Source of the DNA: Gammaproteobacteria bacterium
Lineage (GTDB): Bacteria > Pseudomonadota > Gammaproteobacteria > Steroidobacterales > Steroidobacteraceae
Assembly: GCA_027315105.1 (NCBI GenBank)
Contig: DAHUYP010000024.1
Coordinates: 2,125-66,124, forward strand
Reading direction: 5' to 3'
DNA: 64,000 bases
Within the stretch, counting starts at the first letter, position 1. Each line of letters opens with the position of its first letter. Below are positions 15,106-25,288 of this stretch, in pieces. The translations under genes were made by a program, and so were the position numbers. A model generated the notes under the pieces. The model was not told the origin of the DNA. It searched no databases and was given only the letters and a program-made list of their open reading frames with translations.

Positions 15106-15861
15106 TCAGGGCCACGGCTGTGCCGATATCAGCCGCGCCGCCTCCTCGACGCATGGACCCAGCTCGATGACGGATCGCGCGGCGAGGTCGCGGCGGGAGA
15201 AGATCGTGATCTGCCGCATCAGGTCGGCGGCCCGCGGGCATGCCAGGCGAATCACATCCATTGCGGATGCGCCCGCTGACCCGGGCGGCAGGTTCTCCGC
15301 CAGTGGGTCGAGGTTGCCGGTGATAGCCAGCAGTATGTTGTTGGAGTCGTGCGCAATACCGCTAGCAATGCTACCCAGAGCCCGCATCTTCTGCGACTGC
15401 CGCGGCTCCTCCTGAAGAGTCAACCGTTCCTGCTCGGCCGCCACCTTGTGGCTCAGGTCGGTGAATGTCGCAAGCACGCACTGTTCACCGAGTATTGTCA
15501 GGACATTGACTGTCATCAAGACGGGCACGTTGCCGCCGCACCGACGTCGAGGCTCGAGCTCCATTCCTTTGGCTATGTCGCCCCGCTCGATGAGCGCCAG
15601 GATCTGTTTGCGCGCGTCCGGTATCGGGTAGAAGGCGAGCTCGCCGACCGCTTTCCCGACGACGTCTTGCCGGCGCAGACCGAAAAGTGTCTGGAAGGAG
15701 GCATTGACATCGAGAATGATGTCGTCCGAGAGGCGGCGGATTGCCATGCCGATCGAGCTGCCGTGAAAAACAGTGGCAAATAGCTGTCTGCTTTCGTTGA
15801 GTGCTTCCAGTTGAGCTTTCAGCTCCTGGTTCAGTGTCCCGATCCTGGCGTGCGCGCGCTT
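15106..15861 (-). pseudogene. sensor histidine kinase remnant (coiled coil + PAS + HisKA only)
   Basis: Frame is open from 15861, directly after an in-frame TGA: ..GTLNQELKAQLEALNESRQLFATVFHGSSIGMAIRRL.., a PAS core, then the H-box GSIASGIAHDSNNILLAITGNL. Stops at 15106 with no HATPase_c boxes. The N-terminus is cut at the ISL3 remnant. Confidence 0.6.
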
Positions 15862-15864
15862 TCA

Positions 15865-16198
15865 ATCAGTGACGTCGATGCCGGGCGAGAGCCGTAGGTC
15901 ATGCGCCGATGACTTCGATCTTGGAGTTGATGGCCTCGATGAGGTTGGTGCCGAGGGGGTATCGGCAGCGCGCCAGGATCCTCAGCAGGTATGGGCGTAG
16001 CGCCCGGGCGGAGCGCTTGAGCGGTTCGATGCCGCGTCGCAGCGCCTTGCGGTACCAGCTGCTCCAGGGCTTGGCGGCCCGCTCCGGCTGGCGCTGTGCC
16101 CATACATCCTTCAGAGCGTCTCGCGGCACGTAGACAACGAACAGGCTGTGATTGGCGCTCGGCAGTTCGCCGAGTTCGACAGTCGTCTCCTGGATTGA
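15865..16198 (-). mobile_element. ISL3-family transposase 3' remnant (frameshifted)
   Basis: ..ALKDVWAQRQPERAAKPWSSWYRKALRRGIEPLKRSARALRPYLLRILARCRYPLGTNLIEAINSKIEVIGA resembles by eye the C-terminal region of ISL3 transposases (..GplEGiNnkIKvikR). The following RRMTYG (cf. RRAYGFR) is in another frame. No N-terminal two thirds and no IRs identified. Confidence 0.6.
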
Positions 16199-16235
16199 GG
16201 AGACGCGGTTCTTCAGCAGCGGCCAGCGGGCACCC

Positions 16236-16445
16236 CTTGACGTTCAAAACGTCACGCAGTCCCTCTCCATGGACGATGCCCGAGAGCGGATCGAAGCTTG
16301 GCGGATCGTTTACAATGCGCATCGAGCCCCCCCGCTCACTCGGTCATCTGACACCGAGCGAGTTTGCACGGAAACGTCATGGAAAAAGGACGTCAGAAGC
16401 AGCGAGTCTCTAGCACCGAACCGTCCCTCAATTGGGGCAGTGTCA
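16236..16445 (+). mobile_element. IS3-family transposase (OrfB) 3' remnant (frameshifted)
   Basis: LDVQNVTQSLSMDDARERIEAWRIVYNAHR, then in another frame PPRSLGHLTPSEFARK, matches the IS3 OrfB tail (..sl.dAr..ieaWr.dYN..RPHssLg.ltPaEFa). Stop at 16411-16413. A ..TGTCA at 16441-16445 could be the element terminus. Confidence 0.55.
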
Positions 16446-16466
16446 CTATTTCATAGGAGCGGTGTT

Positions 16467-17144
16467 GTGTGGAAGCGGCGCGGCCGGGGCAGAAAATCTG
16501 AAAGCATGTGGCGTTCAAGAGAAATTCCATACCTGCTAACTATTCTCATGGCAGTGGTAGCTTGGAGCGTCCAGCGGATAGTAGATCGTGCTACCGCGCT
16601 GCCACTGGTTTCATATGAGATCAAATCAAATATCGAGGGTATCCCCGCGCAAGCTCTTGTGGTTCCATCCTGTGTCGAGGGCGCCAAGACAACGGCTGTA
16701 CGAGTATGGCTAGTGCGGTTTCACAACCTCAGCGGAACAGCCTTTTTGAACACCGACTTTATCTTCCAGGCGCTGGGCCCAAATCCTCACATTCTGGCGG
16801 TGAGATGGACCGACATCCCCCCCGCCGATGCGGGCGGCGTACCTAATAATCGGTGCTCGCCCCCAGGGGCGGAAAGTGAGTCTCTGCACCTTCAAGAGTT
16901 TCAGCCGGACTGGTCCGGGATAGCTCGAGTGTGGGCCTTTAATGCGACCGCTATTACCGTGATGCATCATTTCTCGGACTTGGCCGCAGGCTCTGCGCAT
17001 CCCGCCATGCGCCTTATGGAATCTGGGTTGACGACAGCGATTGTGGAACACGAATTCGGTCTCTATGCTTGTTTGGCAGTAGCGGCAATTCTAATGATTG
17101 TTCTGTTCTTGTGGCTCGTGCCCAAGTCAAAAGGCGATGAGTAG
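16467..17144 (+). CDS. hypothetical bitopic/hairpin membrane protein (islet ORF-A)
   Basis: GTG 16467 with AGGAG 7 nt upstream (alternative ATG 16506). Basic N-tail, TM IPYLLTILMAVVAWSV, about 150-aa beta-rich middle, TM LYACLAVAAILMIVLFLWLV, KSKGDE tail. A 225-codon ORF in about 43% GC DNA is unlikely by chance. Confidence 0.55.
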   Translation: MWKRRGRGRKSESMWRSREIPYLLTILMAVVAWSVQRIVDRATALPLVSYEIKSNIEGIPAQALVVPSCVEGAKTTAVRVWLVRFHNLSGTAFLNTDFIFQALGPNPHILAVRWTDIPPADAGGVPNNRCSPPGAESESLHLQEFQPDWSGIARVWAFNATAITVMHHFSDLAAGSAHPAMRLMESGLTTAIVEHEFGLYACLAVAAILMIVLFLWLVPKSKGDE

Positions 17145-18009
17145 ATTTTCGAATCCAAGCAGAATTGTCGTCGCATTGTTAGTGGCGGCGAAAGTGAACG
17201 CGGGTTCGCTCATCAAGGTCATCGATAAAGATCAAGATGCTCCGGTGCAAAGTCGCATAGAGATCAATGCTCGAAACATGGGCTCAACTCAACCAGACGG
17301 CATCTTGAAACTACGCGTACCGTGTAAGGCCAGTGATTTGGTGGCAGCGATCCCGTTATCAGCCGACTACGTAAAGGGGGCCGCCTACTGCAATTCGCAA
17401 GGTGACCAAACCCAAGTAACAGTCTATCGCCGCAGCGTGCTCGTAGTTCTCGAGGCGCAGTTTCAGCATGCTAAACACGTGTCCGACCTGAGCGCAGAAA
17501 GTATATTGGCCAGGGAGATTTCAGGGCGCTACAAAGGCATAGACTCCAGCCAAGTTAGGAAGTACGAATCTGAGGCGGCTGCCGCAGAGGTGGCAATATC
17601 ACGGTTGCCTAAGAGCGCAGTGACGAAGATAGAATTCGGCTATCTCAGGGATTCTAAGAATTGGACTTATTTCGAAGACAATATCAACGAAGATCGCACT
17701 TGGGTACTCAACGGCAGAGTTGCAGTTGACTGGCACCCGGAAACGGGGCTACAAGCCAAGGAAGTAGCCAGCGGACAAGTCGTCTGGGAAGTGCCAACAA
17801 GCTCGGAAGTTGTATCGCGGCCACTCCGGTATCGAATTGGGAATAAAACCTATCTGTCGGTGGAAGGATCCGGATCCCCTAAGAAGGAGGTGCTAGAGTT
17901 AAGCGACAACTTCGAAGCCATAGGGACCGCGCCGATGGCACAGAACCCCGAGAACCAAAATAAGCAAGAAGGCGGCACGGTCTACACTTTCCCGTTGCGA
18001 TCTCCCTGA
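17137..18009 (+). CDS. hypothetical secreted protein (islet ORF-B)
   Basis: ATG 17137 overlaps the ORF-A stop (ATGAGTAG). Signal peptide MSRFSNPSRIVVALLVAAKVNA-GS. The N-terminal segment VIDKDQDAPVQSRIEIN..DGILKLRVPC resembles a CarboxypepD_reg-like beta sandwich. The rest is unassigned. Confidence 0.6.
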   Translation: MSRFSNPSRIVVALLVAAKVNAGSLIKVIDKDQDAPVQSRIEINARNMGSTQPDGILKLRVPCKASDLVAAIPLSADYVKGAAYCNSQGDQTQVTVYRRSVLVVLEAQFQHAKHVSDLSAESILAREISGRYKGIDSSQVRKYESEAAAAEVAISRLPKSAVTKIEFGYLRDSKNWTYFEDNINEDRTWVLNGRVAVDWHPETGLQAKEVASGQVVWEVPTSSEVVSRPLRYRIGNKTYLSVEGSGSPKKEVLELSDNFEAIGTAPMAQNPENQNKQEGGTVYTFPLRSP

Positions 18010-18133
18010 AGGGTAGCGTTTCCGCTGGTCAACAACTTTAGCCGCGCTCGAAAGATTGCTCAGCCTCTGACGAACCTTCGGACACGCTCAATATGTTGTT
18101 CGGCACCGTTCTGCAGACTTCGCAGATGTAAAT

Positions 18134-18210
18134 TGGCGCGCCCGGAGAGATTCGAACTCCCGACCCCCTGGTTCGTAGCCAGGTACTCTATCCAACTGAG
18201 CTACGGGCGC
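18134..18210 (-). tRNA. tRNA-Arg (anticodon ACG)
   Basis: The reverse complement GCGCCCGTAGCTCAGTTGGATAGAGTACCTGGCTACGAACCAGGGGGTCGGGAGTTCGAATCTCTCCGGGCGCGCCA folds as a cloverleaf. It has a 7-bp acceptor stem GCGCCCG/CGGGCGC, anticodon stem CCTGG/CCAGG, loop CTACGAA, T-loop TTCGAAT and an encoded CCA. Confidence 0.95.
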
Positions 18211-18415
18211 GCTGTCTTGGCTGCTGCGAGGCGGCGGCTTCAGGCCGGCGCGGCTGCGGTTGCAAAGAGCCGCGCATTCTAAGGTCGGACGGCGGATCCG
18301 TCCAGACGCGGCAGCGGCATGAGCGGGGCCGCCCGAGGCGGCGCGGATTCGCGTGGAATCAAGATCTTGGGCCCGCGCCGGTGGTCTGCGGCGCGCGCCG
18401 ATCAGGGTACGCCTA

Positions 18416-23593: not shown

Positions 23594-25288
23594 TCAGCCG
23601 CCGGCGGGCAGCGGCGGCAATCCGAGCAGCGATTCGAGCTGCCGGTCGTAGCCGTAGATGTCGTCGAAGAAATGCACCGCGCCGTCCTCGGTCGCGACCG
23701 CGGTGCCATAGACGATGAGCACGTGCACCGGCACGGCCAGCGGCACGTGCAGCGTGGCGTCGCCGTTCATGGCGGCGATGATCCTGGACGCGGTCCAGTC
23801 CCCCGCGTTGCCGGCGAGCACCTGCTCGGCCAGTGCCACCGGATCGCTGACCCGGATGCAGCCATGGCTGAACGTGCGCCGGGGCTGGTCGAACAGCCGC
23901 GTCGCGGGCGTCGAGTGCAGATAGACGTCGTACGGGTTGGGCAGCACGAATTTGATCAGCCCGAGCGCGTTTTCTGGACCGGGTCGCTGGCGCAGCCGCA
24001 ATTGGCCCGCCGCCAGGGCTTCGATGCTCTCGGCGCTCAGGGGCACCACGGCGGCCTGATCACTCGCGCCGCGCACGATCTCCATGTCCTGCGAGCGCAG
24101 ATAGTCGGGATTGCGCTGCAGCAGCGGCAGGATCTCGCGCGTCAGGATGCTGCGCGGAACGTCCCAATAGGGCCGGAACACGACGTATCGCATATCGGCG
24201 GTGAACACCGGCGTGCGCGTGTGCGGGTACTGCCGGCCGACGATCACGTTCATGCGCAGCATCGAGGATTCATGGTCCTGCGTCGATGTGAGCGCGAACA
24301 GCCGGAACTGCGGGATGTTGACGATGATGCTCGGGGCGCGCAGCGGCGGCAGCCACCGCCAGCGCTCGAGCGTGAGCTCGATCTGCCGTACGCGCTGCGC
24401 CAGCGGCGTGGTGAGCGCCGCGTAGGTGGCGCGCCCGAGCACGCCGTCCACCCGCAGGCCGTAGAGCGATTGCAGGCACGTCAGGGCCTCGACCACCGGC
24501 GCGTCCAGGACCTGCGGATCGGCCGGGGCTGCGATGCCGGCGCTCTCCGGCGGTGCACATCCGAGCGCCGCCAGCAGCGGGCGCAGCTGCGCTGCGCCCG
24601 CATAGCGTTCGCCTGCGGCCAGCCGGGCGTGCGGCAGCGGCGGCAAGCGGCTCAAGGCGGGTTGGCGCGCGAGCTCGCGAAAGCGCGGCAGCGCCTGCTC
24701 GAGCAGCCGGTAATGGATGAACTGCGGCTCGAGCCGCTCGAGCACCGTGCGGGTATCCGGCTCGGTTGCCAGCTGCTGCAGCTGCGCGAGCGCATCGAAG
24801 CGGCCCGTGTGGGGCGGCAGCTCGAAATGCGCGGTGCGCGGATCGATGCGGCCGTCGTGCAGATCGGCGATGAACGCCAAGGCGCTCGCGGACAGCCGCC
24901 GGTCGAAATCCGCCCAGGCGACCGGCGCCGCCGGGCTCTGCCGCAACGTGCGCAGCTGCAGCGCGAGCTCGTCGGGCGCATAGTCCCGCGGCTGCAATCC
25001 CTCGTCGGCGGCCGCCTGCAGCGCGCCGATCACCGCCGATGCCTCGGCGCTCGCTGCACCGCCATCGCTCCAGAGCAGCGTGTAGTCGCGGTGCGCGTAG
25101 AACGCCTCCAGCAGTGCCCGTTGCGCGGCCAGGCCGCGCCGCAGAACCGCCGGCGGCGCTTCGGCGGCCGGCAAGCGCATCAATGCCGCGCGCAGCGCAC
25201 CGGCGCCCGCCGCATCCAGGGACACGGGCGCGCGCGCGCCGGCAGCGGCCAGCGATGACAGCAGCGCGCACGCGATCCAACGCTTCAT
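23594..25288 (-). CDS. murein L,D-transpeptidase (YcbB/LdtD-like)
   Basis: Signal peptide. YkuD catalytic motif LHSTPATRLFDQPRRTFSHGCIRV. 564 aa, as for YcbB-type enzymes. Confidence 0.85.
   Translation of the reverse strand: MKRWIACALLSSLAAAGARAPVSLDAAGAGALRAALMRLPAAEAPPAVLRRGLAAQRALLEAFYAHRDYTLLWSDGGAASAEASAVIGALQAAADEGLQPRDYAPDELALQLRTLRQSPAAPVAWADFDRRLSASALAFIADLHDGRIDPRTAHFELPPHTGRFDALAQLQQLATEPDTRTVLERLEPQFIHYRLLEQALPRFRELARQPALSRLPPLPHARLAAGERYAGAAQLRPLLAALGCAPPESAGIAAPADPQVLDAPVVEALTCLQSLYGLRVDGVLGRATYAALTTPLAQRVRQIELTLERWRWLPPLRAPSIIVNIPQFRLFALTSTQDHESSMLRMNVIVGRQYPHTRTPVFTADMRYVVFRPYWDVPRSILTREILPLLQRNPDYLRSQDMEIVRGASDQAAVVPLSAESIEALAAGQLRLRQRPGPENALGLIKFVLPNPYDVYLHSTPATRLFDQPRRTFSHGCIRVSDPVALAEQVLAGNAGDWTASRIIAAMNGDATLHVPLAVPVHVLIVYGTAVATEDGAVHFFDDIYGYDRQLESLLGLPPLPAGG

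Follow-up and report, generated by a model that had tools for sequence, protein, structure and literature searches.

A foreign islet at tRNA-Arg(ACG) in a Steroidobacteraceae genome carries a possible truncated relic of a rare two-gene cassette linked to XoxF-type quinoprotein dehydrogenases

Methanol and ethanol dehydrogenases that depend on pyrroloquinoline quinone (PQQ) are eight-bladed beta-propellers of approximately 530–600 residues, and the propeller of methanol dehydrogenase holds an active site made up of a vicinal Cys-Cys disulfide, a catalytic Asp and metal ligands. Here, we describe a gene pair whose second member ends in a fragment of such an enzyme. The pair lies in a stretch of 64,000 nucleotides (nt) from a gammaproteobacterium of the family Steroidobacteraceae (assembly GCA_027315105.1, contig DAHUYP010000024.1, positions 2,125–66,124), which we refer to as the window, and consists of two open reading frames (ORFs) on the plus strand, ORF-A (16467..17144) and ORF-B (17137–18009). 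Both are located in a low-GC islet of approximately 1.7 kb (16454–18133) between insertion sequence (IS) debris and a tRNA-Arg gene. An earlier sequence-only reading of this DNA had proposed the islet as the window's best candidate for an undescribed system. Our analysis removes that false lead, as the islet appears to be a foreign stump holding a dehydrogenase gene without its catalytic propeller, and we assign a probability of roughly 55% to the reading that the window copy is a young relic, that is, a truncated recent acquisition at tRNA-Arg(ACG) and not a working system. At the same time, the search for relatives revealed a very rare cassette, with four locus types among billions of proteins.

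ORF-B encodes 290 amino acids (aa) from an ATG start, and its tail (17749..17997, residues 205–287) is homologous to the last ~85 residues of XoxF/MxaF-type PQQ dehydrogenases, comprising the last propeller blade and the C-terminal tail. Searching the last 102 residues of ORF-B against PDB sequences returned eight matches, all of them PQQ-dependent methanol, ethanol or glucose dehydrogenases and all at the C-terminal ends of these enzymes; the best (7o6z_A, residues 533–618 of 620, E = 1.5e-6) extended to the common ...GGT(L/V)YTF end. P0006, a fragment from the C-terminal part of a PQQ dehydrogenase (PF01011; glucose dehydrogenase in its source name), also aligned with residues 205–287 over 88 aa, at 31% identity and with E-values of 6e-13 pairwise and 4e-4 against 1.84 billion representative proteins. 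The family model TIGR03075 aligned with ORF-B only at positions 475–525 of 530 and scored 14.3–16.4 bits versus a cut-off of 480, PF01011 was not detected in ORF-B by a Pfam scan, and the canonical mature XoxF N-terminus (..NW..PG....RYSPL.QIN..NV..) was not detectable in the window protein. The description from the letters, a beta-rich domain with a low-complexity tail, had missed that this segment represents the C-terminus of such an enzyme.

Beyond this homology of the last blade and tail, ORF-B has neither the propeller nor the active site of a PQQ dehydrogenase. Approximately 470 aa of propeller are absent, including all PQQ-, metal- and substrate-binding elements, and given this absence and the gap between the TIGR03075 score and its cut-off, we conclude from the sequence that the window ORF-B cannot be an alcohol-oxidising dehydrogenase. 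The tail corresponds to part of one propeller blade, and the structure model suggests that it is unlikely to fold alone. It is preceded by a linker (17602..17748, residues 156–204) for which no homologue was detectable and whose predicted local distance difference test (pLDDT) score is below 35; the presumed deletion junction falls within this linker. A MAFFT column that paired window W189 with the XoxF 'NW' motif was considered as the 5' boundary of the deletion and rejected, as direct BLASTP found no similarity. In their foreign composition, the ORF-B N-terminal module and the tail are alike (GC content at third codon positions, GC3, of 0.56 and 0.60, respectively), which argues that both were derived from the donor.

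The N-terminal half of ORF-B is of a different kind. It begins with a predicted signal peptide (17137..17202, residues 1–22, ...AAKVNA|GS), consisting of a hydrophobic N-terminus and an AXA-like site that recur in all homologues, with cleavage presumably after AAKVNA. The following module (N-module; 17197..17601, residues 21–155) comprises a seven-stranded sandwich (residues 25–98) and three helices (residues 99–155). AlphaFold2 with a four-sequence alignment modeled residues 21–155 with a pLDDT of 77–95 (85–95 for the sandwich), as opposed to <35 for residues 158–290. C63 and C85, which are non-adjacent and the sole Cys residues of ORF-B, are invariant in the N-module family. In Foldseek, the sandwich was most similar to the transthyretin-like domain of carboxypeptidase D (1qmu, E = 2e-3; 5aq0, TMt 0.69), and the matches, which included Bacteroides fragilis 3e8v, had a probability of 1.0, TMt of 0.60–0.69 and root-mean-square deviations of 3–4 Å over ~80 residues. 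Both the secretory N-terminus and the carboxypeptidase-regulatory-like sandwich followed by helices had been anticipated by the sequence-only reading and are borne out by hydropathy, by the homologues and by the model. The transthyretin-like fold is generic and carries no functional implication; a Foldseek search of ORF-B against BFVD likewise returned generic sandwich matches only (E > 4e-3). A sub-threshold Fn3_arc match in ORF-B (E = 0.014) was ignored.

ORF-A encodes 225 aa from a GTG start, with AGGAG at 16455–16459, 8 nt upstream, and an alternative ATG at 16506. A short basic N-terminal tail precedes a first transmembrane (TM) helix (approximately residues 20–42, nt 16524–16592), which is followed by a domain of ~150 aa (nt 16593–17051) with a conserved Cys pair (C69/C130), a second TM helix (approximately residues 196–218, nt 17052–17120) and an 8-aa tail. 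This layout recurs in all homologues, in agreement with the two-helix topology first proposed and now supported by hydropathy. As there is a TM helix at each end with ~150 aa between them, the bulk of ORF-A is expected to be periplasmic, with essentially no cytoplasmic domain. A marginal match of the ORF-A family profile to 4gnx_B among PDB sequences (E = 0.013) was treated as chance. The ORF-A frame is also open upstream into the neighboring IS3 remnant, and P0002, the 291-aa gene call in the public record, takes as its start an ATG located within the transposase remnant; judging from the homologues and the AGGAG site, which point to a start at 16467 or 16506, the P0002 start is an annotation artefact.

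We then asked where else the two genes are found together. A full HMMER scan of 1.84 billion representative proteins yielded the relatives of ORF-B, three of which match its N-terminal half: P0003 (E = 1.1e-18), P0005 and P0008, from the metagenomic locus types L038 (contig Ga0643808_0557081 of JGI metagenome 3300078367), L039 (a contig from a soil metagenome) and L040, respectively. No other protein in this set matched ORF-B end to end. A k-mer-seeded search of 5.8 billion proteins, with single queries and with a concatenated A+B profile, found only the window's own proteins, and neither ORF had a significant match in Pfam, NCBIfam, PHROGs or PADLOC; weak matches to DUF3975, Fn3_arc and DUF1439 fell below threshold and were disregarded. 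Viral contigs, phage genomes and plasmids contained no relatives of either gene at the DNA or protein level. Two Logan contigs carry the pair at 100% identity to the window and were not counted as independent evidence.

Wherever the context was readable, an ORF-A homologue stood directly upstream of an ORF-B homologue (4/4 locus types: the window, L038, L039 and L040), and the genes overlapped or were closely spaced in each. In the window, the two ORFs overlap by ATGAGTAG at 17137–17144, as the sequence-only reading had noted. L038 has a partial ORF-A homologue, a 15-nt gap containing GGAGG and then P0003; ORF-A homologues overlap P0005 by 17 nt in L039 and the 282-aa full form of P0008, also by 17 nt, in the L040 type, a locus type that recurs without change on seven contigs, which represent at least five samples. 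Thus, all four locus types contain a two-TM A protein directly upstream of, and coupled to, a secreted B protein with the sandwich-plus-helices N-module, and no family library describes the pair. Ranked by either gene, the relatives fall in the same order, L038 > L039 > L040 (45, 35 and 31% identity for ORF-A; 38, 29 and 26% for ORF-B), which indicates that A and B were inherited as a unit. On every L040-type contig, a 60-aa Cys-rich ORF (L042:198–380; also L041, L043 and L044) starts just upstream of the A gene and overlaps it. The window has no counterpart of this ORF, and the IS3 end occupies its position.

The closest relative connects the N-module to the dehydrogenase. In L038, the frame of P0003 already holds the mature XoxF start (DEVTDRSDDPNLWAAPGG), and between the N-module and an XoxF-like propeller a 10-nt tandem duplication at L038:938–957 (CGCCGGGCGG x2) causes a frameshift, leaving a database entry (P0003) that reads as a 226-aa 'hypothetical protein'. 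The frameshift could be real, making the gene a pseudogene, or an assembly error. With the frame repaired, the L038 peptide forms one collinear block with residues 33–107 of 7o6z (E = 1.4e-19) and matches positions 10–81 of TIGR03075 (E = 1.3e-14) and positions 1–56 of PF01011. Since this collinear XoxF match lies behind the N-module, we read the L038 module as an N-terminal extension of an XoxF-type quinoprotein dehydrogenase. The more distant L039 B protein keeps the XoxF N-terminal motif (NDPNQWGAPAGELNLNRYSSLKEINTNNV), with 57% identity over 30 aa to the L038 piece, and past the motif continues into an unrelated domain of ~85 aa that it shares with the L040 B protein (E = 2e-7), including a conserved Cys pair. 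This domain was considered as a diverged XoxF blade and rejected, as it had no similarity to P0006 (E = 3.1) and none notable to the window tail (E = 0.21). Homology of the window ORF-B to P0003 in phmmer ends at residue 148.

The DNA of the islet is foreign. Its GC content is 53.2% versus 68.3% for the whole window, the global minimum of all 1680-nt windows (median 0.692, 5th percentile 0.609), and the GC3 of ORF-A and ORF-B is 0.57–0.58 versus 0.87–0.92 in flanking host genes, with an index resembling the codon adaptation index of 0.27–0.28. The counts cited in the sequence-only reading (26, 26 and 22 G+C per 60-nt line within the islet and 43 in line 20041) are exact, the islet lines chosen being the lowest ones, and its claim of horizontal acquisition agrees with these values. 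Its borders hold as well: the islet extends from the IS3 remnant, which ends at ~16453, to tRNA-Arg at 18134, with the ORF-B stop at 18009, 124 nt away.

Together, these data are consistent with the following history. The ancestor would have consisted of ORF-A and a B protein composed of signal peptide, N-module and XoxF-like propeller. In the L039/L040 lineage, the propeller may have been replaced long ago and the short form retained, and a separate, in-frame loss of ~470 propeller residues in the window lineage would have left the last blade, the tail and the original stop. We infer such a deletion from sequence comparison as the origin of the ORF-B architecture, and the lack of any other end-to-end match among the representatives fits a one-off event. 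In the intact cassette, ORF-A would sit in the inner membrane by its two terminal helices, and the disulfide-bonded domain between them would bind the N-module of ORF-B 1:1 in the periplasm. This putative complex is suggested by three observations, namely that only ORF-A and the N-module occur in every locus, that both are periplasmic with Cys pairs, and that their genes are coupled. By anchoring the N-module, ORF-A could keep a variable C-terminal cargo, which in the long form would be a quinoprotein dehydrogenase, tethered to the inner membrane on its outer face.

Whether the window copy still works is a separate matter. We favor a relic, and with it a presumed loss of function, because the pair lies amid debris, no promoter-like site was found, the propeller fragment is an orphan and the architecture is unique. 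Flanking the pair are remnants of ISL3- and IS3-family transposases along with a PAS/HisKA fragment that is truncated, and a scan of 16200–18300 found no usable sigma-70-like promoter or terminator. Several observations weigh against this reading and the history behind it. Neither the XoxF N-terminus nor the L038 junction region showed similarity to ORF-B in BLASTP, so that the 5' edge of the deletion is not visible and the junction is bracketed to residues ~150–205. The long form is known from a single 1143-nt contig (L038) that is frameshifted and ends 80 aa into the propeller, and the single-sequence AlphaFold model of ORF-A (pLDDT 44) is uninformative, with only the two TM helices confident. 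The propeller-less short forms of L039 and L040 are conserved at 27–50% identity; evidently, the cassette functions without the dehydrogenase, given that short forms are maintained and one is unchanged in at least five samples, and the window copy might do so too. Finally, both window ORFs read through without a frameshift or internal stop and retain every family-invariant residue, as is also expected of a working gene pair.

These points converge on the best-surviving rival, according to which the window pair is a working envelope module without a dehydrogenase, comparable to L039 and L040, with the XoxF-derived tail as an exapted appendage. We consider this possible, albeit doubtful. The intact ORFs with their conserved residues, the translational coupling and the good Shine-Dalgarno site all speak for it, as does the conservation of propeller-less forms in two lineages and several samples, where they have a C-terminal domain of their own with its Cys pair. 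Against this stand the window architecture, which is unique among the 1.84 billion representatives, a tail that is a fragment of one propeller blade with a pLDDT below 35, and the position of the pair amid IS and gene debris with no promoter-like site. Furthermore, the composition is unameliorated and the DNA therefore arrived recently, such that the intact ORFs may merely reflect a young insertion and cannot decide between a relic and a working pair. A related and equally tentative proposal is that ORF-A and the N-module form an undescribed periplasmic docking pair for interchangeable cargo, of which the window copy is a functional short variant. In the long form, the cargo would be an XoxF-type lanthanide/PQQ alcohol dehydrogenase, and the short forms would carry small domains with disulfide bonds.

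The proposal made from the letters, that the pair is tRNA-proximal cargo for phage exclusion, defence or surface modification, fares considerably worse, and we regard an undescribed system of this type as very unlikely. The position at a tRNA integration hotspot and the fact that both proteins face the envelope are in its favor, and the pair in L039 lies 1.5 kb downstream of a bona fide, complete-looking Pycsar system (L039:10–947; PycTIR effector C-terminus, E = 2e-26, then PycC cyclase, E = 4e-101); the interval between the two encodes a membrane protein of 237 aa, unannotated and in the opposite orientation. This is the sole neighboring defence system, found in one of the three other locus types; the L038 contig is too short to contribute, and so few loci fall well short of what a test for enrichment requires. 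However, PADLOC-DB 2.0 contained no family matching ORF-A or ORF-B at E ≤ 1 or six further family members at E ≤ 0.01, so that none of the eight A/B proteins has a match, and the viral, phage and plasmid collections had already proved empty of relatives. No effector-type domain is present, and ORF-A has almost no cytoplasmic part and thus no obvious signaling route to the cytoplasm. In addition, the closest relative, L038, is fused to a metabolic quinoprotein dehydrogenase, and the best-sampled locus, the L040 type, sits among catabolic genes (TetR, MFS, oxidoreductase, aldehyde dehydrogenase and hydrolase genes).

Both ORFs are coding, and the notion of chance open frames in non-coding foreign DNA can be dismissed, its probability being negligible in our view: although a stop-free stretch of 302 codons arose once in 500 mononucleotide shuffles of the islet, the 95th percentile of the longest such run was 172 codons versus 225 and 303 observed, each ORF is the sole open frame of six across its own span (6–16 stops in the other five), GC1 exceeds GC2 in both as in genes, the N-module has a confidently predicted fold, and the existence of homologues for both, with conserved residues, Cys pairs and gene order, already refutes it.

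On the right of the islet, a tRNA-Arg(ACG) gene (18134–18210, minus strand; ARAGORN, and Rfam RF00005 with 65.6 bits) has its 3' end toward the islet. The 124-nt spacer between the ORF-B stop and this end (18010..18133, no strand, GC 0.516) holds no integrase, att-like repeat, Rfam match or terminator-like site. On the left, the C-terminal remnant of an IS3-family transposase with one frameshift (16152..16453, plus strand; weak rve_3 match, E = 0.006) ends 14 nt before the ORF-A start; among plasmids, 251 records contain annotated IS3-family transposases that match its frame-repaired peptide (best E = 2e-8), and ...TTCA (16450–16453) is the probable right end of the element as read from the sequence. 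Further left lie a 76-aa remnant of an ISL3-family transposase (15899..16129, minus strand; PF01610 DDE_Tnp_ISL3, E = 1.1e-9, profile positions 153–223 of 240), annotated likewise on an identical Logan contig, and a 213-aa fragment with a PAS domain and the start of HisKA (15106–15747, minus strand). The latter is truncated at both ends, without its N-terminal part and the ATPase domain, and looks like a histidine-kinase pseudogene severed by IS insertions.

To the right of the tRNA follow an OmpW-family gene, whose product has its best matches at 70% identity in Steroidobacteraceae metagenome-assembled genomes (MAGs), and an alpha/beta-hydrolase gene. The OmpW-family gene thereby marks the host as a Steroidobacteraceae-like gammaproteobacterium. 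Two Steroidobacteraceae MAGs (L003 and L005) share the OmpW-tRNA-Arg(ACG) arrangement with the window. The sequence past the tRNA is common to both MAGs and differs from the window, and in both it encodes a tyrosine integrase directly past the tRNA (L003:8232–8597 and L005:6914–7143), recognizable as a tyrosine recombinase C-terminus on the opposite strand (...HDLKHTFG...LLGHKSGRITTHYS...). Comparison of the tRNA locus in relatives, as the sequence-only reading had suggested, recovered the gene order and, next to the tRNA, an integrase. Because an integrase directly follows the same tRNA in both MAGs, this tRNA qualifies as an integration hotspot in the group, in line with the initial view of the locus, and both integration and assembly breaks appear to recur at it in Steroidobacteraceae-like genomes. 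The L003 and L005 contigs both end within 230–400 nt of the tRNA. Contigs from the Logan assemblies of SRR10333326 and SRR13766252 match the window at 100% identity and are probably from the same organism; they end inside tRNA-Arg (18159–18160), a break that points to additional copies of the tRNA sequence in the genome. A second copy of the tRNA 3' end was not found in the 64-kb window with up to 3 mismatches allowed, nor was an integrase found between 15.1 and 18.1 kb or any meaningful direct or inverted repeat bounding the islet. Elsewhere in the window, and with no relation to the islet, lies an ordinary host envelope gene for a YkuD-type L,D-transpeptidase of 564 aa (23594–25288, minus strand; Scaffold and PG_binding_1).

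The pair family, that is, a two-TM protein with an N-terminally extended XoxF-type quinoprotein or short derivatives of it, has no description in the libraries that we searched, nor did a limited search of the literature turn up anything relevant on N-terminally extended or membrane-tethered XoxF. If XoxF is indeed tethered to the membrane in the long form, this would represent a new arrangement for periplasmic methanol and alcohol oxidation in soil bacteria and would bear on the way in which uncultured members of this group couple such oxidation to their respiratory chain. In addition, the OmpW-linked tRNA-Arg(ACG) can be recorded as an integration site in Steroidobacteraceae-like genomes.

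Compared with known systems, the locus resembles tRNA-linked genomic islands in its atypical composition, in its position at a tRNA 3' end, in the IS debris around it and in that two relatives have an integrase at this tRNA, but differs in having neither an integrase nor a direct repeat of the tRNA 3' end and in a cargo of only 1.7 kb; it is the stump of an inserted element, not an island. With Kiwa and other two-gene membrane-associated defence systems it has in common two adjacent same-strand genes, one of them for a membrane protein, whereas no PADLOC model matches, ORF-A has two TM helices instead of four and ORF-B is secreted instead of cytosolic. The claim that the pair fits nothing known is not supported, since the ORF-B tail is homologous to XoxF/MxaF-type dehydrogenases and the N-module is fused to such an enzyme in L038. 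The ORF-B sandwich resembles transthyretin/CarboxypepD_reg-like domains in fold and extracytoplasmic location, although it lacks a match to PF13620 or a related Pfam family and reaches Foldseek E-values of only 2e-3 to 4e-2. The closest relationship is that to XoxF/MxaF-type dehydrogenases (TIGR03075, PF01011; for example, 7o6z, 4mae and 6dam). Their PDB matches and the literature searched to a limited extent offered no example of such an N-terminal module, and ORF-A, with no NCBIfam or Pfam match, is not a known mxa/xox/ped accessory protein. ORF-B shares with these enzymes the homologous tail and a periplasmic location with a signal peptide, and it departs from them in the missing propeller and in the ~135-aa sandwich-plus-helices module added at its N-terminus.

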